Under the pieces are notes generated by a model. That model worked only from the letters and a program-made list of their open reading frames with translations. It was not told where the DNA came from and made no database searches. A program made the position numbers and the translations under genes. A DNA stretch of 63,562 nucleotides, filler included, from Stramenopiles sp. TOSAG23-6 (Eukaryota), in NCBI GenBank assembly GCA_900128565.1. It is 6 parts of 6 records of this genome, joined end to end, with 100 filler letters (N's around TTAATTAATTAA, not from the genome) between each part and the next. Parts side by side here need not be neighbours in the genome. Positions count along the whole stretch, not along the records: positions 1 to 10,589 come from LT636304.1; positions 10,690 to 21,219 come from LT636305.1; positions 21,320 to 31,812 come from LT636306.1; positions 31,913 to 42,398 come from LT636307.1; positions 42,499 to 52,983 come from LT636308.1; positions 53,084 to 63,562 come from LT636309.1. The stretch is one strand, 5' to 3'. How positions within the stretch are numbered: the first letter of the stretch is position 1; each line of letters opens with the position of its first letter. Shown one piece after another: positions 1 through 61,956 of this stretch.

Positions 1-60
1 TTAGGTACAAAATTTCGTACGAAAAAAAAATCGATTTTTTTGTTAAAAAAAAAAACATAC

Positions 61-1387
61 ATAAAGCTTTAAAGCCAAAACTACTCTTTGTTTGGAGCAT
101 TCCTACAACTTTTTTTGCAGCCTTTTTCTTCTGCCGTTTTTTAATTTGATACCACACGAAATATACACATATAGTTATAAATGCAATTGTAAGTTCAGAC
201 CAGAAAAACATTGATGTATAATACAACCAAGGTGTGTTATCAATGCACACAAGAGCTTGAACATGCGTATTGGAAAAATATTTCAAAAAAAAATCGTTAG
301 GTACAAAATTTCGTAAGAAAAAAAAACGCGAATTTGAAAAAAATAAAACATACATGGACAGAGACTAAACCCCATAGAAAAGCTACAACTAATAACAGTC
401 CAAAAAAAATATAAAATGCAATTAAACCTCGAAGTGTTCGCATGTATTGTGAAAAATATATTTTTTTACTAAAGTTGTTTTGTTAGGTACAAAATTTCAT
501 AGTAAAAAAACAAAAAAAAATTCGAAATTTTGAAAACGTACATTCGACAACAATTACACGCTCCTGGGCCAATAAAAATACAGCATAAGAAAAAAAGATA
601 CATGTATGATGTATTGTGAACAAATATTTATTTTAGTAAAAATATTTTGTGAGTTATAAATATTTCATAGTAAAACGAAAAACAAAAACAAAAACGAAAA
701 AAAAAAAAAAAAAAATGTCACATTCAATTTTGAAAACGTACCTAACGCCCAAATATTAAAAAGAACATAATCGACTAAAAATCCTTGATCGCACTCACCA
801 GGGTTTAGTGAGGCATCAGTAGCTCCTTTATTCCATAAATATTCGTGTACTGTGAAAAAATATTTTTTTTTTGTTTACAAAAATTCGTTAGGTACAAAAT
901 TTTCATGGAAAAAAATATAAATTTGAAATTCATAATGAAAACGTATGTATACAAAGGAGCCCCAGAGAATTGTAAACAATGCTGCATATATTCCAACAAA
1001 TGGTCCTGTAATAATAATGGGTACCCAAGTTTTCATTTTATCTTGGAAAGCTGTCTTCTTTTTCTTTAAGTTATTTAAATCTGTTTGACGTATTGACTCT
1101 TTCGCCTTCAACTTAAGTTCTTCTCTTTGAGCATTCTTTTCTTTCTCTTTATCCATAGTTTCCATTGTTATTGCCAAGCCACCATTATCATCACCGCCCC
1201 ATCCACCGTCATCCCATCCACCTTGATCAGCTTGCGCGTCAGTGTTGTCTGTGGCTAATTCTTCTGTAGCAACAGATGGAGCAATTCCTGCTTCTGCATT
1301 TGCAACTAAAGTGTCCCTTTCGATCTGAGCTTTCCGATCTTGCTCATTTTTGATATTTTGTTTACGTCTATCGCGAAGTGATGGCAT
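61..1387 (-). CDS. Multi-pass membrane protein of unknown function, 3' partial
   Basis: Exons 1387-947, 844-742, 608-542, 441-354 and 262-61 join in one open frame with several hydrophobic segments after removing four family introns. A fifth intron starts at 60 and runs off the contig. Confidence 0.75.
845..946 (-). other. Family intron with probable AT-AC ends
   Basis: gta tac|ATACGTTTTCA...CACAGTACAC|gaa tat gives FVY-EYLWNK in frame. An upstream GT 6 nt earlier is also in frame. Confidence 0.6.
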
Positions 1388-1764
1388 TGTCTTCTATATG
1401 CTCTAAAAAAATGGTGGATTAGTTTTCAAACAATAACTACAATATAAACACTTAATTTTTACTTCTTTGAGCTTCTGATTGTTGAACGTAAGTGTTACCG
1501 TTGGTTTGACAGTTTCATCCTTTTGGTACGAAATTCTGTACCTAATCTATAAACCAGAAAATGTACTCAAATTCCGATTTCATCTTTTTTCTTCGTTGAC
1601 CGCGACAATACAATAAGAGTCTTCTTCCTCCGAAAAACATTTTTAGTGCATCGGTGTGCATTCTTGATAGTATTATATCGAGAATGTTGTAGCAATATTA
1701 AAGTGCATTACCTATAGTATTGGTTTGCTTTTTGTGGAAATAGTTTTAAGAACAAATTTATAGT

Positions 1765-3234
1765 ATGCCCACGACGGAAGACATCGATGGTAATCGAAGC
1801 TCGAATGCGTTTGTTACTCCTGACAAAGAAAGTACTAGAAACATAATGGGGATATCAATAGGACAAAAAAATATGACCCCACCTCGTACACTACATGTAT
1901 CTCCGTTACAGTCGCATTCATCGCGACTATCATCTATTGAAAATATACGCAACGAAAAGAAAAGTCGTCCGTTCTCAGCACCTGCAAAGAATATTCGGTA
2001 CCCATTGTCCTACTCTGCCGCGCGAGCTTGTAGCTTCCGCCACAGTGAAATGCTACATGGCCAATCTTTAAATCCCTTACTTTTTAGTCATCGTGTCAAA
2101 CCGAAGAATATTATAACAACTACACCTATACCATCGAAACGAACAACGTCTCTCACTGCAAGGTCATTTCGGTCAGCAGCTTCATTAGATAAACTATCAC
2201 CGAATCGTCGGTCAGCAAAATTGGATTTCACCCCCAATCATGTTATTAATGATGAATTAATACAATCTGTACAAACATCGAGTGGTGGTTATATCGATAG
2301 TACTTCAGTAGAGCATTTGAAAAGTAATATAGATGAATGGATTGAAGAGGACGTCGTTGCAGTGAAAGACATTACTACCCCAACCCTAATAACCCCAACC
2401 CTAATAACTAAGGAAGTAGTACCAGTATCAAAGATACACCAAAATACAGTGAGACGGCCTCGAAGAAGTCAATCAGAAGGAGATACGGCAGATTTAGTCA
2501 GATTACAAATGCATAGCAGCAATGAAGTCATCCCAAAGTTCATATCATCGAATTCTTCACCAATTGTTCAACAGAAGAATAACCCTAACCCTAATGTCAT
2601 ACGAAACACTACTACGTCGACTCGTTCAAGAGGCCGTCGCAATGCTCTGACCATCAGTTCCAACAAAAATACTGTGGATGATGGATCATTCCATACGCAA
2701 ATAATCAGAAGTGTACAAAAAATAAATAACACAAACGCACTTACACAAACCAGCAGAGGTGTTCTTACATGTATGGTTTATTTTCTTTTCAATTTCAAAT
2801 TTTTTTTTTTTAATAGTAAATTTTGTACCTAACAAATTTTGAGATTTTTACATTGTTTTTTACAATACAGCAGAAACACCGAATGTTAGAAAATATCCAG
2901 TTTTATTACCTACTACTCATGATACGACTCGGAAAAGCCATTCCACAGATCCTGCGAATCGAATTTTTTATGTCATGTACTTTTTTTTAGATGTATTATG
3001 TACCGTACCATTATATTACTATGAAAATTTCATACCTAACAATTCAAAAAAAAAAAAATATTTTTTCACAAGATATGTCTCGAGGTCGATTCTTTGATGC
3101 AGCAAGAACATTGCGTTTAACATCTTCCAGTGTTGAGTTATACAGATCATCATCACATCAATCTTTAGGAGTACGTCGACATGCTTGGCCGTATGCTTGT
3201 CTTGTTGGTCTGGAGCTCTCGCCATCAGATGCAT
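1765..3234 (+). CDS. Hypothetical Ser/Thr/Arg-rich protein, 3' end uncertain
   Basis: Exons 1765-2770, 2871-2976 and 3077-3234 join in frame (introns GT-AG and GT-AT). The next intron leads into a phase-incompatible exon. Confidence 0.6.
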
Positions 3235-3340
3235 GTATGTTTTTTTTTTTTTTTTTAAAAAAAAATCGAATTTATTTTTTTATAAAAATTTTGTACCTAA
3301 CATTTTTTTTTTTTTTTTGAAATATTTTTCCAAAATCCAT

Positions 3341-3821
3341 TTTATGTTTGGCTGTTGGTCTTACAGCCTATTTTGATAAGTATATAAGAGATTGGGTTCC
3401 TTTTGCAGCAGTTGCTTTTCTTATTGGACATGGGTTAACAACAACAGCACTATCAATTGTTTCATCTGCATCGGAAGGTCTGTATGTTTTTTTTTTTAAT
3501 TTCGAATTTATGAATTTTTTTTCGTACGAAATTTTGTACCTAACAAATTTTTTATGATTTTTTTTTGAAATATTTTTCCAAAATACCTTATTATTGGATT
3601 TGAAAAGTATAGTCAAAAAATGCGCCGATCTTTCCCATTAATATATGAAAAATTAAACCGTCTCAAAGAAGAAAGATTTATACGGACTATGTATGTTTTA
3701 TTTTTTTTTTAACAAAAAAATCGAATTTATGTTTCGTACGAAAGTTTGTACCTAACAAATTTTGATTTGTTTTTGAAATATTTTTCCAAAATACATAGAC
3801 TTTGAGAATGATGGATTTTGA
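3341..3821 (+). CDS. C-terminal fragment of a choline transporter-like (CTL/PNS1) membrane protein
   Basis: Exons 3341-3481, 3589-3690 and 3797-3821 give AFLIGHGLTTTALSIVSSASEG-LIIGFEKYSQKMRRSFPLIYEKL, which resembles the PNS1/CTL C-terminus. Confidence 0.55.
3482..3588 (+). other. Family intron with GT-CT ends and a CT/CT duplication
   Basis: ggt CT|GTATG...CCAAAATAC CT|t att att gga gives EG-L-IIG in frame. Confidence 0.75.
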
Positions 3822-4081
3822 ATTTTTGAATCTTTGAATTTTTGATTGACAGATGTATTGCATATAATTTGTTTCCATCGGTTTCCATACACAATTTAAA
3901 TTCCAAGTAATAAAATCTAAATATATAATATTATATAAAATATTCAAAGTGAACCACTTGAAACAACTAAATTGTTTCGCGTTGTTTTACGGTTTTACGG
4001 TTTTACGGAGGGGTTACTGTTACGGGGTTTACGACTCATTGGAAACCTATTGCTTATAAGGTTGTTTTGCTCATTCTTATT

Positions 4082-4594
4082 CTATGATGAACTACGAAGT
4101 TGCCTCCCAACCTTCTCCTTTACTGCCTTTACTAAGGAAATCCGACGCTTTCGATAAAATGGTGAAATTGCTACCTCGTTCATATGATAAAGCCCATAGG
4201 CTATTGGAAACCCATACCTGTTTGATTTATCATCTTGAGTCAAAGGTGTGCGATTATCTAGTAATAGTTTCTCATTAGTGAGATCAGGGATATTATACTT
4301 CCAGAGTCGCGATGTATTTGGTGATCGGGGAGATTTTGGTGTTGGTCGACCCAATTCCTCGTAGATATAGTCTAAATTACCTAAATTATTGTCTAATTTT
4401 AATTTTTCTTGAATAAGTCCATTAAGTATCGCAGTACTTTGTTTTTTATTGTTATCTGGAAAACTCACTACTTTATATGTAGCAGAAGTCTCGGTACCTC
4501 CTCCGGTAACTACTATGAACCTGAGGAGGAAGTACCCCAGGCCTATGCACAGTGCTCCAATTAATAATATTGCATTCGTCACAGGATACGGCAT
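4082..4594 (-). CDS. Hypothetical protein with N-terminal membrane anchor
   Basis: 170-aa ATG-started ORF with an N-terminal hydrophobic helix, divergent from the ING gene. Confidence 0.55.
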   Translation of the reverse strand: MPYPVTNAILLIGALCIGLGYFLLRFIVVTGGGTETSATYKVVSFPDNNKKQSTAILNGLIQEKLKLDNNLGNLDYIYEELGRPTPKSPRSPNTSRLWKYNIPDLTNEKLLLDNRTPLTQDDKSNRYGFPIAYGLYHMNEVAISPFYRKRRISLVKAVKEKVGRQLRSSS

Positions 4595-4946
4595 TTAACC
4601 GTAGAGCTCTATATTAATGTGTGAAGAAGCGGACTCTAGCTAGAGAAAAAAAACACAAATTGAAGTCAGCTCGTGCGAGCCAGGCAAGCAAGCTGCAAAA
4701 CCAACCAATGTTTTTTTTTGTCTTTTGTTTTTTTGGCGCATTTGTCATCCGGGTCCGGGTACCCTCAAAAAATTTCGCGACCTAATTTTTTTTTTACCAT
4801 GATGACGTCTCTGCGGGCTAAACGCGGGAAGAAAAGTTAGAGTAAAAAAGCAGCTAGATTCATCTTTGAAGATGACATTGTGTTTTGAAATTCCTTCTGA
4901 ACGGAAATAGGAGCGTCATAGTTGTAGTTAGATATTGTTGAAAGAA

Positions 4947-6023
4947 ATGGCACAAAACGCAACGTATCTAGAGGAGTATCTTGATGATATTTCATCCGTT
5001 CCGAAAGAAATTAAACGTAATTTTAACTTGATGCGTGAGTTGGACCAAAATACTGTCGTTCTCCAGCAAGAAATAGCCACCCTTCGTAGTTGCTATTTGG
5101 AACGAGCGAAATCACGACTAGATGCTCAGAATAATGTAGATACCAACAAAGAAGAATCTTCTGGACGTGGCGGTAAAAAGCTCACTGCTCGAGAAAAAGC
5201 GAAATCTAATAGAAACTCAAAATCAAAAGGAGGGAACGATAAAAAAAGTGGAAAGGACTTGGCGGCTCTTGTACGAGATGAAAAAGCCCTCGAATATATA
5301 CAAAAACAACACCAAAAAGCAATGTCAAATGCAGAAGAAAAAGTGGCGATTGCTGCACAAGCTTATGATCTTGTTGATAGAGCTATTCGTGAACTAGACC
5401 AAAAGTTGCAGAAATTTGAAACCGAGCTTCAACAGGGAAAATATGCTGTTCATAATATAGATGAGAATGATGCAAATAATGAAAATGTGTATGATGGTGA
5501 TGATCAATTACATTCTCCAGCTGGACCACTGAAAGGTCTCAAACGGCCACGACCCGGATCTTCTTGGGAGGATTTGGGTTACGTACAAGTTTTACGTGGT
5601 TTACCAGGATTAGTTCCAAAGCCTGTGACTGTTAGTAGAAAGAGTAGTCTTGCAACTACATCAAGTATTTTAGCCTCAAATGTTAGCGATCGATCGTCTA
5701 TATCTGCAAATGTAAATTTTGTGTCAAATAAAGCAAATGGAATTGTCGCTATACCTGCTCTAAGTAGTTCCGTTGTGGGTGTTCAACCAACTAGATTGGT
5801 TGGAGAAATGCCAATCGACCCGAATGAACCTACCTACTGCTTCTGCAACAGAGTTTCATTTGGTGAAATGGTTGGTTGTGATAATGATGATTGTGAGATT
5901 GAGTGGTTTCATTATGCTTGTGTTGGTTTAACTGAGCAGCCTAAGGGTAAGTGGTACTGTCCTCAATGTGAAGCTATCATGGCAGGGGCAGCTCAGAATA
6001 AGAAAAAAAAAGGAAGAAGGTGA
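4947..6023 (+). CDS. ING: Inhibitor of growth (ING) family PHD-finger protein
   Basis: N-terminal ING helix ([27 protein letters not shown]) and C-terminal PHD ([38 protein letters not shown]...KWYCPQC). Intronless. Confidence 0.95.
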
Positions 6024-6380
6024 TGTTTCTTAAAATCTAATTCTACTAGTATGTAAATTGAGTAATTATATCCATGTATAAATTCTATAAAATTCCCTTT
6101 CAGCGTTTTACTATTACTAATAAATGTAAAATACGTCATGTAGGACTCCTAAATTGATCAATTTTACACATTTTTTTTTCATTTTTTTTCACATTTCGCA
6201 TCATTCTTGTCTTTTTTAGACTCGTAGTAGTCCACGATATAGATTCTGAAATCGAATTCGATATAGCGTAAGCTTCGCGAGTCTCAAAAAAAACTTTCCG
6301 TCTTCCTCCGACTTTTCATTTGCTGGAGCTTTGTGCAATGAATCTCATAAATTGATAAGCATTAGATCATTTCACAAAAA

Positions 6381-7649
6381 ATGCCTGAAAAGCCTAAGCG
6401 TAAGTCACGTGCCAAAACTGTACCAGCAAAAACCAATGCTCAAGAATCCGCGAGCAAGGGTGTTGCTGCAGCTGTTCCTACTTCTGGTAAGCCTGCTGCG
6501 GCTTCCAAAGCTAAAGTAGGTAGTTCAAAGGCAGTTGCACCCTCAAAAACAGCGCAAAAGAAAAAGAAACCAAAGAAGGCTACTAAAAAGGGTGCTGCCG
6601 GGGGAAATCGTACGGCTATACAGCAGCGTCGCGCCCTTCGGGATCGTGTTCAACAACGTCGTAAGGCTGACGCCTTAAACACTGAAGATACAACAGACGA
6701 GGAGTCCTTAAACTCAGACGCTTCTATCGAGGAAGAGAATGAAGAAATTATTGCTGAATGTGAAAGACATAGAGAAAGCGTCGTAGACGCTGCCGAAAAT
6801 ATGAGAACTATGATTGCTAGTGACATTGCAAGTTTTGCTGGGGAAGTTCCTCAAATTCTAGAAGAGACAGTTTTGGCAAGTAGCGGCAACGTAACAACAA
6901 CAGACAAATGTCGCAAGAGAGCTCGAGTTTCTGGTGCAATTGCACAACCGTTTGTATATGGTACGATTGCGTGGTGGTTAGGACGAAAACAAGATGATAG
7001 TGCCTCTCATAAATGGACTGTTTACGTGCGGGGTGTAGACTGTGAAGATTTATCATATTTAATTAAAAAGGTTGTTTTTCAACTCCATCCATCATTTGCA
7101 CAAAGCCGTCGTGTACTCACAGAGCCTCCGTTCGAAGTAATGGAAGCAGGTTGGGGTGAATTTGAAATTAAGATTACTCTTCATTTTCAAGACAATGACG
7201 AGAAACCACTGGAAATATTCAAATTATTACGTTTATATCCTCCTAGTGAAACTGGAAACCGACAACCTTCGACAAAAAAACCGGTTGTTGAAGAGTTTTA
7301 CGATGAGATTATCTTCAATTCTCCGAGTCCGGCGTTTACCCAAAAGTTACTGAGAGGCCCAGAAGGTTCTAAAAGAGCGAAATTATACGATGAAGCGACT
7401 AGTCTGAGAGAAAATGGTAAGTTACGTGAAAAAGACAAAGAGACTCAATCTAGCGAAGGGTCTAGTGAGGAAAATAAAGATGGTAGTTCATTAGAAAATA
7501 TATCTAACAAGAAGAGGCATCAACTAGCGGATTTATTTTGTACATTTGATGAAAATGAAGACATCGCAGCTATCGCAGCTGCACAGAATTATGTCTCTCA
7601 AGAAATGAAAAAAATGGTTCGACAATTGTCTCAGAGAGACGAAAGTTGA
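6381..7649 (+). CDS. YAF9: YEATS-domain protein (YAF9/GAS41-like)
   Basis: HKWTVYVRG...IKKVVFQLHPSF...PPFEVMEAGWGEFEI...VVEEFYDEIIF. Confidence 0.9.
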   Translation: MPEKPKRKSRAKTVPAKTNAQESASKGVAAAVPTSGKPAAASKAKVGSSKAVAPSKTAQKKKKPKKATKKGAAGGNRTAIQQRRALRDRVQQRRKADALNTEDTTDEESLNSDASIEEENEEIIAECERHRESVVDAAENMRTMIASDIASFAGEVPQILEETVLASSGNVTTTDKCRKRARVSGAIAQPFVYGTIAWWLGRKQDDSASHKWTVYVRGVDCEDLSYLIKKVVFQLHPSFAQSRRVLTEPPFEVMEAGWGEFEIKITLHFQDNDEKPLEIFKLLRLYPPSETGNRQPSTKKPVVEEFYDEIIFNSPSPAFTQKLLRGPEGSKRAKLYDEATSLRENGKLREKDKETQSSEGSSEENKDGSSLENISNKKRHQLADLFCTFDENEDIAAIAAAQNYVSQEMKKMVRQLSQRDES

Positions 7650-7788
7650 TATTTTACCTTCGTGTGATATAATAATAAACTCTCAATCATTATATCTTAG
7701 TATATATATCAATGTATAAAGGAATAATATTATTAGTGGAATATTCATTCATAAAATAAATAAATTATCTGCACAAGATATAGGAAAG

Positions 7789-9078
7789 TTAAAGCCGTGA
7801 TACTCCAATCCTTGAAGACGTACGACTATTTTTCATTGGTAACGACATTCGAACAACTTCTTCAATAGTTGTCATATTGTATCTTTCTGGTGCTCCAGTC
7901 TCAGATAATATCGCAGTATTTAAAGTACAACCTCCACCGACCTCATTTGCAACTGAACCAGTGACGAATTCCTTGTGCATGAACTGTTGATACCAACATA
8001 TGTAAAAATCGATCGAAGGAGTTGGAACATTCATCATCTGAGCTAAACTTTTCAATACAACAAGACCATATGGAATATCTTCCCAAAATAAGCGACATTC
8101 TACAAGCGGTTTGACACGATTTCCAGGTAACTTGACCATGGGCGTTGCACAACCAGCATAACCACGATTTGAACGGAAAATTTGACGGAGACTGCTTCTG
8201 TCAGAAACATCTTTCCCATACTGTTTTACTACACGAGCACCAAGAGGGAGCACAGGAGAAAGGTCTAAAGTTGGGAATCGACTCAAAAGAGCATGTTTGA
8301 TGGTTTGTAACTCTGTGTCAAGTGCTTGCATCTGCTCTGCGCCAAATTCATCCATATCTGCGTACAAAGTCATTCCTCCTTTAGCACGTATTTCTTCAAT
8401 ATCATAGTCTTTCTTTCCATCCCAATCTCGGAATATGGAATAATATCGAGGGGGGTGGATAATTTGGTTTGACGGAGATAGTGTCAATGTTAAAAAATTT
8501 GGTAGAGTATAAGTTGGGATGTCAAATAGTTTGAAAGCTACTGCAGCTGCGTCGGCAGCGCGTTCTACTGGATATGCTGCAACCCAAAGATTAGCTTTTG
8601 GACCAATAATAGTCACCCGTTTTCCATAATTCGCTTTCTTGTCAAAGAGATTGCATATCCATGGGATATTTTGAAGACCCCAAGTGATGGATATTTTACT
8701 CTCGAATGTAGCAAAGGCTTCTTGCACAGCCCAATCGAACCCACCTTGACAGTACAGTGAAGCGACCTGGACACCATTCTTCGCGAATGGCGCAACACGC
8801 TTCAACAGTATTGGATGAACATTGGCTGGTGCGGCAACAAGTAGCAAATCCGCACCTGGGACTACATCGTAAGGATCAGACGATACAGCTTCAATTTTAC
8901 CTGTGATAATACCACGACTCTCCCAAGATGAGCCCTTTGTATGAACATCAATGGTTTTGTTCCACTCACGAGGGCGTCGAGTCAAGATACGAACGCGAAT
9001 GTTCGGTTTAGAGCCTAAATAACCAGCTGCTGTGTGAGCTCCATTACCACCCCCACAAATACAAACTGTAAATACCAT
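7789..9078 (-). CDS. Opine (octopine/tauropine-type) dehydrogenase
   Basis: N-terminal VCICGGGNGAH Rossmann motif, NQIIHP, and RLFWEDIPYGL...VPTPSID typical of the octopine/nopaline dehydrogenase family. Confidence 0.85.
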   Translation of the reverse strand: MVFTVCICGGGNGAHTAAGYLGSKPNIRVRILTRRPREWNKTIDVHTKGSSWESRGIITGKIEAVSSDPYDVVPGADLLLVAAPANVHPILLKRVAPFAKNGVQVASLYCQGGFDWAVQEAFATFESKISITWGLQNIPWICNLFDKKANYGKRVTIIGPKANLWVAAYPVERAADAAAVAFKLFDIPTYTLPNFLTLTLSPSNQIIHPPRYYSIFRDWDGKKDYDIEEIRAKGGMTLYADMDEFGAEQMQALDTELQTIKHALLSRFPTLDLSPVLPLGARVVKQYGKDVSDRSSLRQIFRSNRGYAGCATPMVKLPGNRVKPLVECRLFWEDIPYGLVVLKSLAQMMNVPTPSIDFYICWYQQFMHKEFVTGSVANEVGGGCTLNTAILSETGAPERYNMTTIEEVVRMSLPMKNSRTSSRIGVSRL

Positions 9079-9527
9079 TTTGCAGTATGTAGTTTCTTTC
9101 AATAACTTAAGACAATCGTGGCTAAAATACACACACACACACAAACTGTGTTTGCAATTGGCCGTCAGTTATTGAGTTAATTAAAGATATTGTACACGAA
9201 ATATGACGATAGTACGACAAAGTTCACACGAAAAATGAAAATTTGATAGTTTTTCCCAAGGTTTAATCCATTTAATTCTTTAATCAAAAGGAAGACGAAA
9301 ACATTGAAATGAAATTGGTGATGTCAACATTGTTGTTGTATTGTAAAGGAAATTAGTGGTGTCTAAAATATCGCTTTTATTTCGATCCCATAATAAAAAA
9401 AATTGTTTCGCAAATTTTGACAATTTTTAGCTCATATATTATTAGGGTTAGGAACTATCCTCTCTCCCGATAAAACTTGATCGCTCTTGGTAATTCAATA
9501 AAAAAATGATGGAAAATGTTTTAAGGG

Positions 9528-10529
9528 TTAATTACACCCAGGTGCAAACACTGGTTTTCCTTCACATGATTGCCATTTGTGAGGAGTACATGCACAACAA
9601 TTTTGAAAGAAACCAGCTTGATACTGACCTGTAGCATATGTATTTTGGAAAAATATTTCAAAAAAAAAAAAACTAGAATTTGTTAGGTACAAAATTTCGT
9701 ACGAAAAAAAAATTTGGAATTTGAAAAAAAATAAAACATACATGTTCCTTCTGGACAAATGTACTTACAGTGTACATCCATTTTATCACATTTAGTACAA
9801 CACCCTGATGGATCATCATCACACCATGGAATATTAATTGGAATAAAGCCAGGTGTTTTGCTGCACTCTTTTACATGGATTATGAAAAATATTTCAATAA
9901 AAAATTCGTTAGGTACAAACTTTCGTACGAAAAAAAAATTCGATTTTTTTGTTAAAAAAAAAAATAAAACATACATGGTTATTGCAGTCCACAGGTTGCA
10001 AGGGTTCAGCACATTCGAGACCTTTAAATCCAGCATTGCACATATTTTGTGAAAAAATATTTTTCTTTTTTAATAGTTAGGTACAAAATTTTCTATGAAA
10101 AAAAAAATGACATATTTTTTTTTTCACTAAAAAAAAATTGTTAGGTACAAAATTTTCTATGAAAAAAAAAAAAGATCAAAACATACATACATTTTCCATT
10201 ACTACAAGTACTATTGTCATTGCAGTTTACTTCAAAGCAAGGATTATGCTCGAGAATGGCTTGCTCGAAATTTTTTACAATTTGCTCATCGTCGATTAAC
10301 TCGGTAATGGAAGTAAGGCGATATTGTATTCTTGCAGGAGCCTCATGAAAAGTTGTAATCCATGTATTTTGGAAAAATATTTGAAAAAAATCTAAAAAAA
10401 AATGTTAGGTACAAAATTTCGTACGAAAAAAAAAAGTTAAATTTGAACTTGTGAAAACGTACATTTGTTCCAGTTTGAAAGTTCCGAAAGTAAATCTGGA
10501 TCTCCACCAATTAGTACTGTTTCAACAAC
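9528..10529 (-). CDS. MACPF/perforin-like protein C-terminal part with EGF-like and Cys-rich domains, 5' partial
   Basis: Spliced sequence VLIGGDPDLLSELSNWNK-W-ITTFHEAPARIQYRLTSITELIDDEQIVKNFEQAILEH fits the MACPF C-terminal pattern. It is followed by EGF-like CSNGKC-M-CNAGFKGLEC. Four GT-AT family introns (e.g. 10362-10462). Confidence 0.7.
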
Positions 10530-10589
10530 ACGTATTTTGGAAAAATATTTCAAAAAAAAATCGTTAGGTACAAAATTTCGTACGAAAAA

Positions 10590-17900: not shown

Positions 17901-18780
17901 CCAAAAGCTGTTCGATTTTTGAAATTATTAGGTGTCAATCCACCATATGATTCTCCAAATCTTCAAATAAAACTTGAATTATCACAAGACGTAGAAAAAT
18001 CTGTAACAAAAACGTCAAATACAAAAAAAATACATACTGAAGTGAAGAGGCCTATTGCGAGAAAAATAGCTCCACCTCCTCCCTCTTTTGGCACACTACA
18101 ACAAACATCTCGAGGGAGTGTACATGAAATCAATAAGAAGCCACAACAACAACGTGTTCGTCCTATAACTCCACCACATGTTAGAGAAGAAAGGATGTAC
18201 GTTTTATTTTTTTTCAATTTTTTTCCAAAATTTTTTTCATAGTACATTTTGTACCTAACAATTTTTTTTAGATTTTTTGAAATATTTTTCTAAAATACAT
18301 GCGTCTTCGTCGAAGATTAGCATTACAATCATCAGCAAGTTCTTCAAGTATTACAAATGAAGTAGTGACTAGTAGAAGAAGAAGAAGGCGAATCATTAGT
18401 GATGATGAAGATGATGATGATGATGATGATGATGAAGATGATGAAGATAAACAAAATGAAAAATCTAAAGTATCAATAGTGGAAAACAAAGTACTTTCTA
18501 CATCAAAAACTACAATGAATAAAATAAAAACTTTTACAATGGATGAATCTGTCCTTTATTCTGGCGCGGATGGCACGAAATCTTTAGCTATTGTTACTGC
18601 CGTTCACACTGATAGTTCTGATGGTCCTTATTATACAATTCGTCTACCAAATGGTAGAGAAAGACAAACATTAGGTATTCGGTTATCAACTCCTCCCGCT
18701 GAGATGTTAATACATTCAAATATAACAAAGAAATCTGCTTCACCAAATACAACACAATATATTCCGTATACTAATCAGAC

Positions 18781-19888: not shown

Positions 19889-19906
19889 GTACGTTTTTCA
19901 AAATTG

Positions 19907-42398: not shown

Positions 42399-42498
42399 NN
42401 NNNNNNNNNNNNNNNNNNNNNNNNNNNNNNNNNNNNNNNNNNTTAATTAATTAANNNNNNNNNNNNNNNNNNNNNNNNNNNNNNNNNNNNNNNNNNNN
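42399..42498. other. Artificial contig linker
   Basis: N-TTAATTAATTAA-N. Confidence 0.97.
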
Positions 42499-42875: not shown

Positions 42876-42893
42876 TTAGGGTTAGGGTTAGGG
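42876..42893 (+). repeat. (TTAGGG)3 interstitial telomere-type repeat
   Basis: TTAGGGTTAGGGTTAGGG in an intergenic position. Confidence 0.85.
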
Positions 42894-46100: not shown

Positions 46101-47276
46101 AAACTTCCGTATCTAACAATGTGTTGTTTGTTTGACATATGTTTTCACTGACATGGTAATTACGGTGGAATTCAAATGAATGAAAATCTAATATTGGGAT
46201 TAGATTATTCTAAGGAGACTGAAGATTTTTGGGAAGCTGTACAAAACAACCTAAATTCTGATGGTGTTATCTATCTTCATGCATGTTTAACTGCATCAAA
46301 CAGCACAGAAAGGCAAGAAAAGGAATTGGAGACCGCAAACATGGATTATTTTGAGAGGACCATTTCATTTGAAGATGCAATAAATGAGGATGCACATCCC
46401 ATTGATTTTGCTACGTATGTCCGACGAAAATTACCAGGGAAACATGTATTTGCTAATGTAACTGAAGCACATAATAGAGATGATGAAGTTATTGACACAA
46501 GAAATAATCCACAATGTCTTCCTGGAAATGGTCAATATGGCTATGGTGATGAAAAATTTGGGATGAAGGAGACTATATCATACCATGGAAAGACACGAAT
46601 TCCAATATGTTCAGTAGCAGATAAACAAAATGAAGAAGGACGAAAAACAAGTGGTTATTTATGCTTTGGCGAATGTGTATCTTGGGTTGGAAACGACACC
46701 GCCAAGCAGAAGTCAGTGGAGGAAGCTTGTGGAGCACCGGCAAACGAAGCGGGGCACACGTCTGCGTCAACGACCGGCGCTGGGGCCCAATCAAGGGTGC
46801 ATCATGAACCATTGGTCGTTAAGAAAAAATACCAAACACATCCACTGGGTAGTTGTAAACTAACAAATGATTCACTTTGGACTACAATTCAAAACTGCAA
46901 CCACGTCGCCCTCTACGCTGCCCACTACGCTGAATCTAAATTTGAGGAAAACATACAAAAACTAACTTTGCTATCTTCGGGTGGAATAACAGAGGAGTTG
47001 CGAAAAATTACAGAAGATTACATCAAATGTGCAAGAGAAGCATTCAATTCTGGTAATGATCAAGATAATCAAGGTAAATGCTTTACAAAAGTTAGAACTA
47101 ATTATCATAATTATGACCGTAAAGAAAATATTAAAACGAAAATGTTCCGCCCAGTTTGTCATTTCAATGAAGAAAAAATAATACAGTTGCAAAGAAATCG
47201 AAAGAAACGCAAAGAGAAACGGATATATGCTCCACTCCAAAATCGAAGCGAAAAGATAACTTTTGAGAATTTATAG
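43138..47276 (+). CDS. Membrane-anchored protein with Gly-rich, Ala/Glu/Lys-rich, IQ-like, LRR and DUF4347/clan-CD-like domains
   Basis: N-terminal TM; IQ-like motifs (RIQAMYRGDVGR, KLQAFQRGRSAR); 23-aa LRRs (LDVSNNQLTTIPDSIGKLKNL); spliced LRISAH-G...VIYLHACLTA. GT-AT intron 46063-46154. Confidence 0.8.
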
Positions 47277-50696: not shown

Positions 50697-52290
50697 ATGA
50701 TCATTTCACTTGTTATATTATCTCTACTGAGCAATCAATATCATCATGGACTCATCATTGTTGTTGCAAGCTCAGGAAATCATCTACAACATTCTGTTTG
50801 TATGGAATCTGATGATATGACGTGTGTAAATAAAAACCCAAATAATCCAAATAATCCAAATAGTTCAAATAGTGTAAATAGTGTATTCAATCAAAGTGAA
50901 CTCTCATCATCACATTCCTCAACATCAACGGATTCAATGAAATTCATGTATGATCCAATGAATGATAAAGTACTTGATGATATTATCATAAAACGAATAA
51001 GTATCTCTCCCAAAGTTTACACAGTTGACAACTTTGCTACAGAAGCAGAAATGAATGAATTATCTGATATCGAAGAGTATTGGTTAGATAAAGCGTCAAC
51101 TCATACGGGAACGACGTTTGAAATGCCTATTACCATGGACTATACACCAATGCGAATCGCTGCTCGAATGGAAGCGTTACTAAATTTAAATAATAGAGAT
51201 TCTACATATAATCCAATTACTTTACGTACAAGGCTTTCGAAAAAGGGGGATTTTTTTCCGCCACATTATGTTCGTTTTTTTTTGATAACCCTAACCCTAG
51301 GTATACTANTTATTTTTTCATACAAAATTTTCATACTAACAATTTTTTTTAGAATTTTTTTTTNGAANTTTTTTTTTTGTACCTAACAAATTTCAGATAT
51401 GATATATTTGTCTAACAAAACAGGATTGGTGGGAAACAACAGATCGAATAGAACCATCCAAGAAAGTTAATTTAATTGTAACTGCCATGTTAAATATGAA
51501 AACTACAAAGGAGGTATTTATTATTATTTTTTTTTCAAATTCTAAATTTTTTTTTTCATAGTAAATTTTGTACCTAACAATTTTTCAAAATTTTTTTGAA
51601 ATATTTTTCCAAAATATATGGTGGTGAGACAGTTTTTGTAAAGGCTCAACCAACACCAATTAAAATTCCACCGATTAGAGGTCAACTGGTACGTTTTTCT
51701 AAATTTTTCCTAGTTTTTTTCTATTTTTTTTNATATTTTTTTTTTTTTTTTTTGTTTTTGGTAGGAAATTTTGTACTTAACAACAAAAGACATTTTTTTT
51801 TAAATGAAATAGTTTTGATCATGAATTTAAAATGTATTATGTGCAATGTATTATGTACAATGTATTGTTTAATTTTTGTTTTGTATACTTTTTCTACATT
51901 GAAAAACTATCAAATGTTTACATTTTATCAAAAAAAAAAAAATTCAAATGTTTGAATTTTTTTTTCATACGAAATTTTGTACCTAACGATTTTTTTTTTT
52001 TTTTTTGTGAAATATTTTTTACAATAAATATTTTCTGGTGGAATTGTAATGAAAATGGAGATAAAGATTTATTTTCACAACATCGAGGTGAAATGATAAA
52101 AAAAGGTACAAAATTTACTACAACACAATTTTTTTATAGTTCTTTGGAAAATTGTAAAAAACAATCGGAGTTTTCGGAAATTTTCCGATGTATCCCCGAT
52201 GGAAAAACTCCGTGTGTTCCTCGAATTCAACTTGAACAGTATTGGCAAAAATCTCAANTTTTTNAANAAAAAANCGATNCANGNCTATGA
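50697..52290 (+). CDS. Prolyl 4-hydroxylase-like 2OG-Fe(II) dioxygenase; 3' end uncertain
   Basis: Signal peptide; ISISPKVYTVDNFATEAE; spliced PPHY-D (intron 51270-51423); KE-GGETVF; SQHRG..IKKGTKFTTTQF. Confidence 0.8.
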
Positions 52291-52983
52291 ACGAGACAAT
52301 GAAGACAATGAAAATATACTACAAACAAAATTACATTACAAAAACAATCAAAATTCTTTTTTTTTTCTTAATGAATTTGAAAGGAAAAAATATCGTAGGT
52401 GATTTTCATCATGAATTTCGGAATTTCGGAATTTTTTTTTTTTTTTTTTTTTTTTTGTTTTTTTACAAAATTTTTTCCCCAAAATTTTTTTTTTTTTTAA
52501 TTTTGTATAATTTTTTTTTTTTTTTTTTTTTTTTTTTGGTATGAAAATTTGTACCTAACAAAAAAAATTTTGATTTTTTTTTTGAAATATTTTTCAAAAA
52601 TACATGAATATCAAATGTTGTATTCAAATGTTTACACAACTTGATTACATAACTAGAAGCGAACTTCTTTATGGTACGTTGTAATCTGTACAATATTGAT
52701 TTGTTTTCCTATACAATTTTTACAATCTTTTTTTTTTTTTTTTTTGTTTTTACTACGAAATTTTGTACCTAACAAAAAAAAATCAAATTTGAAATATTTT
52801 TTCAAAATTCATATATGTGGGAAACAATGAATATCTCTTCTGGAGATAGTATATTACCTTTTAATAATGACTGGACTGGACATGTATGTTTTATTTTTTT
52901 TTTTCACAAAAAAATCGAATTTATTTTTCGTACGAAATTTTGTACCTAACAAATTTTTTAGAATTTTTTTTGAAATATTTTTC

Positions 52984-53988: not shown

Positions 53989-54238
53989 ATTATTGCAGTA
54001 TCACTTCTAGGAATGGCCAGGATATATAAATACAACAAGAATATATCTAGTATTGAAGACTGAAGGTAATTTTTACCTCTGGAATTACGAAAACCGTGGC
54101 GAAAACGAAAACAAAACACAAATAAATTTGACAGTTTTGAAACGGTACCGGGTAACAAAACTTGAAAAAAAACTTCGATATTGTCCGATTTATTATTGTC
54201 CTGTAAAAAATGATTCATTAAGAAAAACTTGTTATACA

Positions 54239-55817
54239 ATGTCAATGTGGGCTTCAACATTATTCCGCAAATTTGTTCCAAAGATAATCTTGAAGTTGTC
54301 AAAAACCAAGAAAAAAATGCTTGGTGCAAGCTTTGTCTTTTTTGTTCTCTCTTTTATAGGTCGTCTCCAAAAAGGTGTAATTAATCGAAAACCATTCTCG
54401 CAGTTTATGTTAGACTTGCGAGGAGGAAAAATTGCAGCGTTATCCATTGGTGCTGCTGGTTTAACGGCATCTACCATTACAGGAGCCACATATACGACGA
54501 TAACTTCATCGATGCTTCTTAATACTTGTGGTCCTGAAATTATTCGCCGCTTACTAACAGATAAAATTCCCTTTGGAACTCCAAAACCAGAATTCCGAGT
54601 GGGACCAATTATAATGTTACTTTTGCCTTTTATTTATCTCGCTGTATCATTAAAGATGATGCAGAGGCAATTAAACCCTCCATCTGGAGATGTTGGCAAG
54701 AAACAAAACGATTCGTCAGCTCTATGCAACGGCCCAACTTTTGATGATATAGCAGGAATGGATGAAGCTTTGACCGAGGTGAGAGAGATTGTTGACTTTT
54801 TAAATAATAGTGAAAAATATTGTAAAATTGGTGCAAAAATTCCAAAAGGAATTTTGTTAATTGGGCCATCAGGAACTGGAAAAACTTTATTAGCTCGATC
54901 TTTAGCTCAGGAAGCCCGCGTTCCTTTTTATTCTTGTAGTGCATGTACGTTTTCAAAATTGATTTATTGTTTTTTTTCGTACGAAATTCCGTACCTAACG
55001 AATTAAAAAAATATATTTTTTTCATATTACATCAGATTTTGTGGAAATTCTAGTTGGTCGTGGTGCTGCTCGTGTACGTGATTTATTCCAAAGAGCTACG
55101 GATTCTTCTGGTGCATCTATTGTTTTCATTGATGAGCTTGATGCTTTAGGTAAAGCGCGAGGTGGTCTTAATAGTAATGACGAAAGAGAACAAACATTAA
55201 ACCAATTACTCACTGAAATGGATGGATTTGATACAAGAGTTGATGAAAATGGTAATAAATTAGACCCGATTGTTATCATTGCTGCGACCAATCGGCCAGA
55301 AGTTTTAGATCCTGCGCTGATTCGACCAGGTCGATTTGATCGACACGTGGAAATTGGATTACCAAATGTTGTATGTTTCATTTTTTTTCAATTTCGAATT
55401 TATTTTTTTATAAAAATTTTGTACCTAACGAATTGTTTTTTGAAATATTTTTCCAAAATACTTGCAGGTAGAGAAGCTATACTTCGTGTACATTCAAAAA
55501 ATATAAGAATGGACCCAAACGTGTCTCTTCGTAAAATTGTACATTATATTCACTTTAATTTCGAATTTATTTATTTTTTGTACGAAATTTTGTACCTAAC
55601 AAAAAAAAAATATATATTTTTCACAATATATGCGACCCTCACTGAAGGTAAATCAGGTGCTGAGCTTGCAGGCATTATTAATGATGCAGCTTTACTTGCA
55701 GTTCGTTATGGACTTGAGCAGGTGAATTCAGTTTGTATGCAGGAGGCGACCACGCGATCTAATGCGTACATATCACATACGAAGTCGAAGTATAAAAAAA
55801 CAAATTGGTTGTTATAA
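54239..55817 (+). CDS. FtsH-like membrane AAA ATPase lacking the M41 protease domain
   Basis: [99 protein letters not shown]. Introns 54945-55032, 55371-55463 and 55539-55631. Start codon uncertain. Confidence 0.85.
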
Positions 55818-56921: not shown

Positions 56922-58021
56922 GCACGTTTTAATTTTTTTTCAAATTCGATTTTTTTTCGTACGAAATTTTGTACCTAACAAATTTTAGTTTTTTTTTTTT
57001 GAANNNNNNNNNNNNNNNNNNNNNNNNNNNNNNNNNNNNNNNNNNNNNNNNNNNNNNNNNNNNNNNNNNNNNNNNNNNNNNNNNNNNNNNNNNNNNNNNN
57101 NNNNNNNNNNNNNNNNNNNNNNNNNNNNNNNNNNNNNNNNNNNNNNNNNNNNNNNNNNNNNNNNNNNNNNNNNNNNNNNNNNNNNNNNNNNNNNNNNAAA
57201 AAAAAAAATAAAAAAAAAAAAAAAAAAAAATATTTTCCGAAAATACATATTATTGTTTATATAAAGATGCAGTTTTGAAGATGTAAGATGGAATGTTTTG
57301 AGATTGATATTTGAGTGCTAAATAGTTCTGTACCAATACCTACTACCACGAACTTTTGAATTTGATACATTTTATTGATGTCACTGTTGTAGAAACTTTT
57401 ATATAGAAGGGGAATAGTGATTGAAAAAATTATGGAATAGAAAGAAACAAGAAAATGGGTTAGGGTTAGGGTTAGCGGAAATGGTACCAAATATCACAAT
57501 GCGCACAACACTAACTAGAATCTATTCGACAATTAATTCACCTGGATGAATTTTTTGTTTGTTGTTGTTGTACAAATAAGAAAGAAATATTTGATAATTA
57601 CTTTTATATTTAATTAAGTCAATGTGTACTCTTAAAAACCCGTAGGAAAGGATAATAGTTTTATAAATTGATGACCATCAAACTATTTTTTCCATTGAGT
57701 ACACCAATTTTAATATAAATTCAATATCTTTTTATATATGGCAACACTGCAGCAATGAAATTTCTTCATTGGTTCATTACTTCCGTATTCATATCTATTT
57801 TTTTTTATTTTTCCTAATTTTTAAAACTAAATATCGGAAATTTTGGCCCGCGATTTCGATTTTCGATTTATTTGGGATATTTCGATTTCGAGAATAAATT
57901 TTGGGCACGCGAAAAAGTGCGCAAGTTTGGAAACTAAACGAAACTAAACACGGTATTAGGACACTCTATCTATTAATAGCTAGCTTAGGAGGAAACACCA
58001 ACTTTATCTATAGCAAATAGT

Positions 58022-59842: not shown

Positions 59843-59973
59843 TACATACACGTAATTATTAGTAATAAATTCTTTTATGGATACTTAATATATTCTTTCT
59901 CACTCAAAACATAATAAAAAACCATATATAATATATTATTTTCCCATCCCTTTTTTCCAAAAATATTTTCACG

Positions 59974-61635
59974 TCACACAACCAATAATAACAAAAGTAT
60001 CGCAACAATTGTAAAATATCCAAATACCTGAGCATAGAGCAAAGGAACAAATCGTCGCACGAAAAAAAATATTTTTCTATCAGTTATTATACTATCACCG
60101 CGAACTAACCTAGGTTTTTTACGTTTTGCCATATCACTATATAAGGAAGAGCGTTCCAAATGTCTAACTCGAGTTAAACTACTAGACAGATCTGTATCCA
60201 CATTTTCACAACTTACACCATAACCAATCTTTGTCATTGGTGCAAGTGGGCCTAAACTATCCAAAGTAAAACGAGAATTACAATTTTCTGTATTTCGCTT
60301 TGCAGGCCCAAAAAAATTGAATAAATCAAAGACTCCAATGTTGTCACCCGCCATACCCGTACTATGAAGTAAACGTAAATCAAGATCACCCAAATTATCA
60401 TTATCAAATGCATGTTTTGTGTCACCCAAAAACAATCTCTGGTTTTCGAATGAGTTTGTTTGTATTTCCTTCATTTTATTATCATTTTCACGCATATTTC
60501 GTACATTGCTCAAATTTTCTTTTATGTTGTTGTTGAGAGCATTAAACGATGGGACTTCTCCCCAGTGAATGCTATCAATGCTTCCATTGCTAGCTGTGCG
60601 TTTTCGTGTCACACACTTCGAACTTGATGAAAGAGAAAAATCTGTAGTTAATACCGTATTGGGGGATTGTAATGGTGATTCCGCAATAACGCTTGGAACT
60701 ACAATCGTCTTTGTATCATGAGAAGAAATCGACATTTTGGATTTAATTCTCATCGTTGCATGATCTGCATGTCGTTTGTCTTTCCAAATGTTTCCCCCCA
60801 TTAAAGGCCTTGCGACTACTCTTGAATCTTCCATGTCAATATCAGTATTACTTGACTCTTCATCCCAGTCCAGAGCGCCTGAGAGAACTTCATAAAATTC
60901 GAAATCAACGTCATCTCTCTTTGGTAATATAGGAGCACATGCAGGTTGTTTTGGTTTAGTCATTTTTGGCTGCTGTATTATACTTTGATTAGAATTTTGT
61001 AATGGTCTTTTTATTGTTTTTGACTTGGACGAGGTTCTCTTAGATAATGAATTTGTTCGAGACCTGCTTTTTGCATCTCTATCGCGAATGGATGTCGACG
61101 TTGTTCTACGTCGTCTAGGCTTAATCGGCGCCGGTGTGACTATTACTCCTTCAATGAGAGAATCAGATATATTCGATAAAGACACAAGGTTCGTTCCAGC
61201 ACAAACTTTCAGCCATTTTCGTTCTGCAGTGAGCTCACACAGACGAGGAAGCTCTAACTTAACCTTAGCTACAGTTGCTCTACCCAGTTTTAGCATATGA
61301 TCTTTATGCTTCTTGGATCGTTTATTCAATGGTTTTTCATTTTGCTTCAAATCTGATCCACCATGTTCGGCCCAAAAGCCATTCACCGCAAACACATCTT
61401 GGCATAGAGCACAATAACGCTGCCATGCTTTACGTCGTGTTTTCCCTTCATATATCGGTCGATCACCGCACTCACTACAACTACCACAGGAGCCATGATA
61501 TACGAGGGAAGTATCTTCATCAGATAAACTGTGTGCATGCTCTACTGCATCCGCTAAATCATTGTCGTTTCCGACACATTGTCCTATTAGAGTCACGACT
61601 CCACGACAATGAGCTCTTTTGCATTTAAGTCTCAA
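59974..61635 (-). CDS. Hypothetical protein with a Cys/His-rich N-terminus
   Basis: 553-codon ORF with CxxC pairs near the N-terminus. The start is disrupted or unclear near 61660. Confidence 0.6.
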   Translation of the reverse strand: MRLKCKRAHCRGVVTLIGQCVGNDNDLADAVEHAHSLSDEDTSLVYHGSCGSCSECGDRPIYEGKTRRKAWQRYCALCQDVFAVNGFWAEHGGSDLKQNEKPLNKRSKKHKDHMLKLGRATVAKVKLELPRLCELTAERKWLKVCAGTNLVSLSNISDSLIEGVIVTPAPIKPRRRRTTSTSIRDRDAKSRSRTNSLSKRTSSKSKTIKRPLQNSNQSIIQQPKMTKPKQPACAPILPKRDDVDFEFYEVLSGALDWDEESSNTDIDMEDSRVVARPLMGGNIWKDKRHADHATMRIKSKMSISSHDTKTIVVPSVIAESPLQSPNTVLTTDFSLSSSSKCVTRKRTASNGSIDSIHWGEVPSFNALNNNIKENLSNVRNMRENDNKMKEIQTNSFENQRLFLGDTKHAFDNDNLGDLDLRLLHSTGMAGDNIGVFDLFNFFGPAKRNTENCNSRFTLDSLGPLAPMTKIGYGVSCENVDTDLSSSLTRVRHLERSSLYSDMAKRKKPRLVRGDSIITDRKIFFFVRRFVPLLYAQVFGYFTIVAILLLLLVV

Positions 61636-61956
61636 CTTTATCGGAAGATCATTCTTTGCTCATTGTATTGAAGTAGGTTTCAAATGCCGCTGATCCATCA
61701 AAGAACATCTGGAAGTAATCTTGATGATGGCGCATAAACTGAAGGGCATATATTTTGGAAAAATATTTCAAAAAAAAAAAATGTTAGGTACAGACTTTCA
61801 TNNNNNNNNNNNNNNNNNNNNNNNNNNNNNNNNNNNNNNNNNNNNNNNNNNNNNNNNNNNNNNNNNNNNNNNNNNNNNNNNNNNNNNNNNNNNNNNNNNN
61901 NNNNNNNNNNNNNNNNNNNNNNNNNNNNNNNNNNNNNNNNNNNNNNNNNNNNNNNN

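Follow-up and report, generated by a model that had tools for sequence, protein, structure and literature searches.

Genes in the window analysed here, a stretch of 63,562 nucleotides (nt, spacers included) from Stramenopiles sp. TOSAG23-6 (GenBank assembly GCA_900128565.1), are interrupted by copies of one short repeat family. These are probably U2-type spliceosomal introns that arose from a short non-autonomous DNA transposon, in other words an introner family; their acceptor would be borrowed from the duplicated AT of the insertion target. According to this model, the 5' end of the element would provide the donor GTAYGT and its interior the CTAAC-type branch site and the T-rich tract, and on insertion a target dinucleotide would be duplicated, in most cases AT and frequently one within CATG. 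The message would be restored by splicing out the element with one copy of the duplication and, since both of these must be removed, the intron would end with the duplicated dinucleotide. The acceptor would be YAT (or YTT, YCT), with the cut directly after it, approximately 32-68 nt past the branch A, and the host splicing machinery would accept U at the last intron position, AG still being used where a copy has acquired it.

We also incline, with modest confidence, to a broader proposal, namely that in a free-living marine stramenopile the second step of the major spliceosome routinely takes U as the last intron base (YAU), bypassing upstream AGs, that this was forced or exploited by an AT-duplicating introner spread to thousands of genes, and that the conserved, element-encoded AAATATTTTTYCA..AY tail, together with the spacing from the branch site, sets the acceptor in place of AG recognition. 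As known from yeast work and spliceosome structures, the two terminal bases of an intron pair with each other, G with G or A with C; G-U as the rule would therefore need some machinery change, and the spliceosome that presumably removes these inserts would be an altered one. If the proposal is true, this is a natural system in which a conventional donor and branch site are combined with re-specified chemistry of the 3' splice site.

The repeat family and its orientation

The window consists of six contigs of about 10 kb, joined by N44-TTAATTAATTAA-N44 spacers, with about 32% G+C and genes of eukaryotic type. An earlier note on this DNA reported about 50 homologous inserts of 90-190 nt in genes on all six contigs, and our searches bear this out far beyond what chance would give. 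The sequence GTACGTTTT occurs 14 times against 0.70 expected (maximum 3 in 100 shuffles), the motif TACCTAAC tags dozens of look-alike inserts on both strands, and a family profile (nhmmer, 16 seed copies, E<=1) gave 68 matches spread over all six contigs, a count that takes in some partial and palindromic double matches. The curated set used below comprises 43 complete copies of 88-207 nt (median 106); two more, 51689-52029 and 22352-22454, were added later by hand and stand outside the 43.

The consensus of the family reads GTAYGTTTT .. CGTACGAAATTTTGTACCTAAC .. T-run .. GAAATATTTTTCCAAAATAC plus 2 nt. The 5' end is GT in 42/43 copies (GTATGT in 17/43, GTACGT in 15/43), and one copy starts with AT. 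A CTAAC-type, TACCTAAC-like branch motif is present in 39/43, and a further copy has a looser TACAAAAC, which makes 40; the A of this predicted branch site lies 32-68 nt (median 41.5) from the intron end and is followed by a T-rich tract. The donor consensus, the CTAAC motif and the T-rich tract are kept even in diverged copies. As is characteristic of introners, the copies interrupt unrelated genes, and all 43 of them are in sense orientation relative to the interrupted open reading frames (ORFs), 32 on the plus and 11 on the minus strand, the probability of such a uniformity arising by chance being about 1e-13. No introns devoid of the family core were seen in the window, where intronless genes are numerous (ING, YEATS, octopine-dehydrogenase-like, VHS-GAT, SnoaL, LRR).

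Target-site duplication and the ends of the element

A feature missed in the earlier note is a 2-nt direct repeat at the borders of the inserts: the 2 nt before the GT are the same as the last 2 nt of the intron in 29/43 copies (AT 24, TT 2, CT 1, AC 1, AG 1). When the ends were shuffled among the copies, 29 matches were reached in 0.12% of trials (permutation p 0.0012), and for the five non-AT concordant pairs (TT, TT, CT, AC, AG) p was 0.001. Lower scores with the family profile were obtained for the copies with mismatching flank and end (14/43; p 0.009), and among the best-conserved copies no ends other than AT, CT and TT occur; the trend for AG-ending copies to be older was not significant (p 0.09). 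Judging from these comparisons of sequence, the flank repeat appears to be a target-site duplication decaying with age. The favoured target looks like CATG, since the repeat is preceded by C in 18/43 and followed, as the first base of the exon, by G in 27/43. Being repeat copies with a 2-nt target-site duplication, the inserts therefore qualify as introners.

The termini of the element are able to pair with each other, positions G1, T2 and A3 being pairable with -3, -4 and -5 in 41, 38 and 35 of the 43 copies, respectively. End-to-end RNA pairing as a guide to the acceptor was considered and rejected, as it amounts to just 3-4 bp. The same pairing could be invoked in favour of a non-spliceosomal removal from RNA, with the paired ends as the guide, as proposed for euglenid nonconventional introns, and the non-AG ends, the transposon origin and the border direct repeat do resemble the euglenid and Amoebophrya cases (PMC12501133, PMC7789003, PMC11282704; here and below, what is said of published systems refers to the accessible parts of the cited papers). 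We consider this mode of removal quite unlikely: besides the shortness of the pairing, the family contains no CAG/CTG code, its donor consensus, CTAAC motif and T-rich tract are retained in diverged copies, the copies that gained an AG are used in the same or the neighbouring register, and the orientation is sense-only, as asymmetric spliceosomal signals require.

Intron ends and reading frame

With the donor placed at GT and the end 2 nt past the equivalent of AATAC, which is the register used throughout, the 43 copies end in AT (31), AG (6), TT (3), AC (1), CT (1) and TG (1). At position -3 there are 32 C, 10 T and a single G, so that the end reads YAT in 31 and YAG in six, the remainder being YTT, YCT, YAC or TTG; since the pyrimidine at -3 is kept in 42/43, the 3' site is best described as YAT, not YAG. 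The acceptor AG of U2-type introns is lacking in 37/43 copies. The earlier description of inserts that start at GT and end 2 nt after a conserved AATAC is thus accurate for the start, while AATAC is only the commonest form of the tail (variants AATAT, AATCC, AATTC, CTGAC and TCATC were found); likewise, GT-AT/TT/CT as the norm holds for 31 AT, 3 TT and 1 CT ends and needs to be qualified by the AG of 6/43 copies and by an upstream AG at 33732. In the latter copy (33732-33849, plus strand) ATAC is changed to ATAG, and the frame picks this AG, 2 nt upstream of the family end, and not the family end itself. Together with the six AG-ending copies, AG is used where a copy acquired one in 7/43, and it is still preferred when located at the site or adjacent to it.

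Removal of the inserts in this register joins the longest upstream and downstream ORFs in phase in 36/43 copies, 1/3 being expected by chance, and three further copies (3691, 9741 and 52399) have a plausible in-frame reading. As to the means by which the acceptor is chosen, a scanning rule of the 'first YAT after branch' type was rejected by eye, as the conserved AAATATTTT tail has an earlier TAT; the acceptor may be placed by the conserved AAATATTTTTYCA..AY tail together with the 32-68 nt spacing.

Junctions fixed by homologous proteins

The position of the junction is fixed to the residue, and without gaps, by homologs at seven sites, one in the glycyl-tRNA synthetase (GlyRS) gene, three in IFT52 and three in an FtsH-like AAA ATPase gene; the introns end in AT in five cases and in TT in two, and the alignments leave no room for an AG-ending alternative. 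(In what follows, a slash marks a splice junction in a protein or nucleotide sequence.) The GlyRS intron TT/GTACGT..ACTT/ (38200-38303, plus strand) gives ELWGI/ANRGSFDL, to be compared with ELWGIANRTDYDL in Saprolegnia and ELWGVANRGSYDL in the protein P0003. In IFT52, no gaps against ten full-length homologs arise at SSGY/ISYPLNRP (29800-29970, AT/GTACCT..ATAT/), GSAD/MFSDD (30058-30171, AT before and at the end) and RLRP/CLQESE (30345-30456, likewise AT and AT), all on the plus strand. In the AAA ATPase gene, also on the plus strand, comparison with orthologs fixes CSA/SDFVE (54945-55032, AT and AT), PNV/AGRE (55371-55463, TT and TT) and LRKI/ATLTEG (55539-55631, TT/GTACAT..ATAT/), and the exons align gap-free to solved FtsH chains; with 7vhp_A they cover residues 63-217, 220-324, a 25-residue exon C and 353-388 (from exon D residue 4), the numbering being continuous across the first of these introns.

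The first exon of GlyRS matches, over the exons, the public protein eukprot GSMAST32.ASY1.ANO1.662.1 at 100% identity, the label GSMAST32 presumably standing for a marine stramenopile of the MAST-3 group; the next best named GlyRS matches are those of oomycetes (54-58%). This public model (P0001, 37315-38900) and those of IFT52 (P0121, eukprot GSMAST32.ASY1.ANO1.2592.1, 28955-31126) and of the AAA gene (P0229,.1539.1, 54011-55814) have exons identical to the window and are wrong at 7/7 of the homolog-fixed junctions: ANRGSFDLG is deleted, IKKNIFPKY is inserted, CLQESEKLPKD is deleted, and so on. Such errors are what a forced GT-AG rule would produce. P0001 also lacks two in-frame GlyRS stretches that are kept in homologs. 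Near-identical transcript-derived proteins crossing the junctions were not found for GlyRS, IFT52 or the AAA gene in the length ranges searched, where only the public models appeared.

The junctions named in the earlier note stand, i.e. those of GlyRS, the three of IFT52 and PNV/AGRE, as well as AAD/LTPLEF (20253-20443), NK/W (10462-10362) and SAH/G (46063-46154). Its assertion that housekeeping genes depend on AG-independent 3' ends agrees with the seven homolog-fixed junctions, with one RNA contig described below, and with 21/43 copies that are non-canonical in every equivalent register.

The position of the cut

The 2-nt repeat leaves the boundaries ambiguous by up to 2 nt, which makes it necessary to consider a cut 2 nt upstream of GT and directly after AATAC. 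The introns would then be AT-AC, a known compatible pair of end bases (A at +1 and C at -1 obey the end-base pairing rule), and not GT-AT. The mRNA would be the same given the repeat, and 946-845 is an AT-AC copy already without the shift. Such a reading appears unlikely, as in the shifted register just 15/43 copies are AT-AC, the rest being AT-AT (5), TT-AC (2), AT-CC, AT-GC, AT-TC, CT-AC and others, and for the 14 copies in which flank and end differ such a register does not exist. Four homolog-fixed introns (38200, 29800, 55371 and 55539) and the RNA-supported one (32975) are not AT-AC in any register, GTAYGT would occupy +3 to +8, where it is misplaced for donor pairing, and the AG-ending copies work in the GT register only.

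The arguments for a cut at GT are as follows. The 5' end becomes uniform (42/43 GT, the exception being the AT..AC copy 946-845), the six AG-ending copies become ordinary GT-AG introns, and the pyrimidine at -3 is retained in 42/43. Moreover, in the discordant intron 55539 the GT cut gives isoleucine, 7/9 orthologs having I, L or V at this position, and the cut 2 nt earlier gives asparagine. On these grounds we infer that the cut is at GT, not 2 nt upstream.

Evidence from RNA and DNA runs

Contigs of RNA and DNA runs were compared with the part of the window from 31913 to 37023, the GlyRS intron lying outside it. Most joints in this comparison are cross-matches between family copies, and the depth over the repeat, though very high in both DNA and RNA runs, is uninterpretable. 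Among the transcripts, a polyA metatranscriptome provided one contig of 193 nt (X10 record 4, depth 2.9) with matches at 32837-32972 and at 33088-33144, so that exactly the predicted 115 nt are skipped. The skipped segment 32973-33087 is equivalent to the predicted intron 32975-33089 (plus strand, AT/GTACGT..ATAT/, in frame) because of the AT repeat, and no register of this gap is GT-AG, GC-AG or AT-AC. It is the single two-piece RNA contig among the contigs listed. In a contig of X7 the match breaks off at 33271, directly in front of the next donor.

The DNA runs X1-X5 contain the stretch. Of the words sampled from 31913-41900, DNA runs share up to 92%, and the proportion is lower in seawater metagenomes and metatranscriptomes. 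In X3, a DNA run from another study, contigs retain two inserts: the intron 34796-34890 is kept whole in a 541-nt contig, and the donor of 32448 is crossed. No insert-free DNA contigs were present among the contigs listed. The runs also revealed that a 9-nt insertion after 32253 is common to the DNA run X3 and the RNA run X6 and that X3 differs from the window by 16 single bases, from which a related but distinct strain in those samples follows.

These data bear on the notion that the inserts are never removed from RNA, being either disabling insertions of recent date, artefacts of amplification or assembly, or sequences excised from DNA in the expressed nucleus. The assembly is indeed fragmentary, with breaks inside the repeat, and the copy 19889-20071 looks chimeric; the family sequence is plentiful in RNA libraries, maybe as unspliced RNA or DNA carry-over, and the single spliced contig could derive from an insert-free allele. 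We nevertheless regard this notion as very improbable, for about 40 insertions, all of them sense-only, restore the frame on removal, including those in GlyRS and IFT52, the independent metagenome X3 contains inserts, and the contig without the insert comes from a polyA RNA library, insert-less DNA contigs being absent among those listed. The sense-only orientation and the splice signals argue as well against internal eliminated sequences of the ciliate type.

Several observations weigh against spliceosomal introners with a borrowed AT acceptor. RNA support concerns a single junction, at a low depth (2.9), and an intron-less allele is possible. Strong conservation of the splice-like motifs may partly reflect the youth of the family. 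The terminal inverted repeat is just 3-4 nt long (GTA..TAC), no transposase or autonomous partner was recognised among the window ORFs scanned, and empty sites were not encountered, mobility being a deduction from structure. Two copies, 3235-3340 and 30655-30756, miss the frame by 1 nt, owing perhaps to a sequence error or to real variation in site choice; the split copy 31758-31973 is also without a simple frame fit. The cut positions in the 29 concordant copies are indistinguishable by mRNA or protein. Finally, an unused AG lies between the branch motif and the end in 14/40 copies, in some about 13 nt past the branch-motif A (18197), which a simple scanning model fails to explain; hence the acceptor cannot simply be equated with the first AG or YAT. 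As to the machinery itself, for which the earlier note supposed a modified spliceosome or recognition of the terminal AAAATAC, no splicing factors were recognised among the window ORFs scanned, and Rfam gave no match in the window at E<=0.1, that is, no small nuclear RNA (snRNA) in the window.

Copies along the contigs

On the first contig, the minus strand carries the 5' part of a copy at the window start (1-60), followed by the in-frame introns 263-353 (AT/GTATGT..GCAT/), 442-541 (AT/GTACGT..ACAT/), 609-741 (AG/GTACGT..ACAT/, flank and end differing) and 845-946, the above-mentioned AT-AC copy (ATACGT..AC, flank AC), in which a CAG 5 nt upstream of the end would break the frame. On the plus strand, 2771-2870 ends in ATACAG (GT-AG in the same register), and 2977-3076 (AT/GTACTT..ATAT/) and 3482-3588 (CT/GTATGT..ACCT/, duplication CT) are, like it, in frame; 3235-3340 (AT/GTATGT..CCAT/) requires 1 nt less, and 3691-3796 precedes a short last exon, its in-frame reading being 8 codons and then a stop. 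Four minus-strand introns follow, 9638-9741 (AT at both borders, in frame with a Cys-rich reading), 9875-9974 (AT/..CCAT/), 10042-10186 (AT at both borders, two branch cores, in frame with the donor at 10186) and 10362-10462 (AT at both borders, NK/W), the second and the last also in frame, and the contig ends in the 3' part of a minus-strand copy (10530-10589) ending in ACGT.

The second contig has all its copies on the plus strand. The introns 13012-13103 (ending ATACAG), 14962-15086 (CT/..ACAT/, 400 codons each side), 18197-18300 (AT at both borders, a bypassed TAG 29 nt before the end) and 20253-20443 (AT/GTAGGT..ACAT/, AAD/LTPLEF, in a TFIIB-repeat gene) are in frame. The copy 19889-20071, with T and A runs of 30-45 nt, has a frame conflict: upstream of it is a UBA/PH protein, and the downstream exon starts at position 38 of a TFIIB repeat, and it is probably an assembly chimera of two intron copies. 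Two tandem copies (21036-21219) reach the contig end.

On the third contig, a family-derived intron with GT..CAG ends (22352-22454, minus strand) is in frame by hand. In-frame introns on the plus strand are 25042-25237 (two cores, ending ATATAG), 25426-25530 (diverged, ending CTCAG), 25826-25932 (AT/..ATAT/), 30898-31015 (AT at both borders), 31128-31229 (TT/GTACAT..ATTG/) and 31377-31523 (AT/..GTACAT/), and on the minus strand 27430-27589 (ending ATATAG). The fourth IFT52 intron (30655-30756, plus strand) has AT at both borders and is the one 1 nt off the frame. The end of this contig (31791-31812) and the start of the fourth (31913-31934) share an exact 22-nt overlap inside a family copy, for which reason contigs 3 and 4 are probably neighbours, as far as sequence alone can tell, with the assembly broken in the repeat and one plus-strand intron split by the spacer (31758-31973, 3' boundary tentative).

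Farther along the fourth contig, the plus strand carries 32448-32551 (AT at both borders, in frame, its donor being the one crossed by the X3 DNA contig), a 3'-truncated copy (33272-33329), in which the return to exon sequence seems to be at TACCTAAC or immediately past it, a stop resulting from use of the AG at 33346, and a diverged in-frame intron AT/..ATCAT/ (33495-33614). Two in-frame introns are on the minus strand, 34549-34666 (TT/..AACAT/) and 34796-34890 (AG/GTGTGT..ACAG/), the latter canonical and being the one found whole in the X3 DNA contig. On the fifth contig all copies are on the plus strand: the diverged AT/..TGACAT/ (46063-46154, SAH/G, in frame), AG/GTATTT..ATAT/ (51514-51619, in frame, short exons), a 341-nt composite intron TG/GTACGT..AAAT/ (51689-52029, in frame by hand), AG/GTGATT..ACAT/ (52399-52605, two upstream frames tie), TG/..TTCAT/ (52674-52812, in frame) and the 5' part of a copy at the contig end (52884-52983). 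The sixth has, besides the AAA-ATPase introns, the 5' part of a minus-strand copy at the contig end (53084-53151), the 5' part of a plus-strand copy with a GCACGT start (GC donor) and its 3' end lost in an N run (56922-57003) and the 3' part of a minus-strand copy ending in ATAT (61748-61801). Several contig ends therefore fall within family copies.

Composite copies, with two branch-motif cores or two tandem elements per intron (10042-10186 on the minus strand, 25042-25237, 21036-21219 and 51689-52029), suggest nested or tandem insertion. Partial cores occur outside coding sequence, all on the plus strand (1487-1556, 26101-26140 and 22846-22902), one of the three in an apparent GTAAGT..CAG intron just 5' of a start codon and two apparently intergenic. 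Family insertions are very unevenly distributed among genes, runs of intronless genes at 4000-9200 and 39300-42400 (ING/PHD, YEATS, octopine-dehydrogenase-like, SnoaL, LRR) standing beside genes with 5-8 family introns. Telomere-like (TTAGGG)2-3 or its complement was seen at eight sites (2583, 17372, 22210, 22907, 27554, 42576, 42876-42893 and 57460), in some cases within or beside family copies, e.g. at 22907 and 27554. A 22-nt family motif had 0 matches in two contig collections, one of metagenome and one of genome contigs.

Comparison with known systems

U12-type introns have the donor RTATCCTT and a branch site about 10-26 nt from the 3' end; in the present family the donor is GTAYGT and 32-68 nt separate the branch motif from the end. 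What U12-type and U2-type AT-AC introns share with it is the tolerance of non-AG 3' ends, the copy 946-845 being itself AT-AC.

The closest parallel is provided by the introners of Micromonas pusilla, Aureococcus anophagefferens and dinoflagellates, where short, nearly identical introns occur by the hundreds to thousands in unrelated genes; in IE1 of M. pusilla the element supplies gt/gc and the duplication supplies the 3' ag (PMC11282704, bioRxiv 10.1101/2020.10.14.339549). Like them, the family described here has a target-site duplication at its borders, one splice site borne by the element and the other coming from the duplication, the intron being the element plus one duplicate. Unlike these introners with their AG acceptor, it has a 2-nt, mostly AT duplication and a YAT (31/43), YTT or YCT acceptor; its inverted ends are just 3-4 nt, and no autonomous partner was seen in the window ORFs.

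Introns derived from miniature inverted-repeat transposable elements (MITEs) in Fritillaria borealis likewise originate from small transposons with duplicated targets; AC and AT 3' ends are common there, most introns are not GT-AG, and the spliceosome is thought to have adapted (PMC11282704, PMC13326754, bioRxiv 2025.08.15.670264). The introns of this animal are diverse and mostly start with AG (AG-AC, AG-AT), whereas in the stramenopile protist one dominant family has a textbook GTAYGT donor and the acceptor alone deviates. Introners of Amoebophrya (Syndiniales), where more than 60% of introns are non-canonical, resemble ours in being repeated elements with border direct repeats (3-5 nt) and ambiguous boundaries, but they have no preferred end dinucleotides, they form hairpins from inverted repeats of 8-20 nt, and no U1 was detected (PMC7789003); the family here has preferred ends, conventional donor and branch motifs and a minimal inverted repeat. 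Euglenid nonconventional introns are alike in that their borders are not GT-AG, their junctions bear short direct repeats and a MITE origin is suspected, and they differ by a CAG/CTG pair at fixed spacers, RNA pairing, the lack of a pyrimidine tract and probably non-spliceosomal factors, none of which was seen here (PMC12501133, PMC11282704): there is no CAG/CTG at +4..+6 and -8..-6, pairing is limited to positions 1-4 with -3 to -6, and the T-rich tract is present. Thus, as far as the accessible parts of these sources go, none of the described non-AG systems (Fritillaria, Amoebophrya, euglenids) has a YAT acceptor along with a donor and a branch site of conventional form.

In a large introner survey, AG and AC were taken as familiar 3' sites, and otherwise RNA-seq support on annotated genomes was required (PMC12130899); because of this requirement, a family hidden by GT-AG-only annotation would escape it. 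Our literature search found no description of such introns, and the main texts of those papers on uncultured marine stramenopile genomes that were checked for such terms do not mention non-canonical introns, though their supplements may bear on the point. The earlier note had spoken of a possibly undescribed splicing system, and this has to be narrowed: introners themselves are already known, and what is new here is an introner variant whose borrowed acceptor is the AT target duplicate. The introner model, according to which the target duplication lends one of the splice sites, is thereby extended to a non-AG target. The public protein set, which forces GT-AG, has conserved residues deleted or inserted at the seven junctions checked, and this affects the phylogenomic and functional surveys that use those proteins. 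More generally, the AG that closes introns belongs to the best conserved signals of eukaryotic gene expression, and the few lineages known to do without it deviate at both intron ends or rely on other machinery; a departure confined to the acceptor, in one young and uniform family, offers a clean natural experiment on the choice of the 3' splice site and on the mutual adaptation of transposon and spliceosome.

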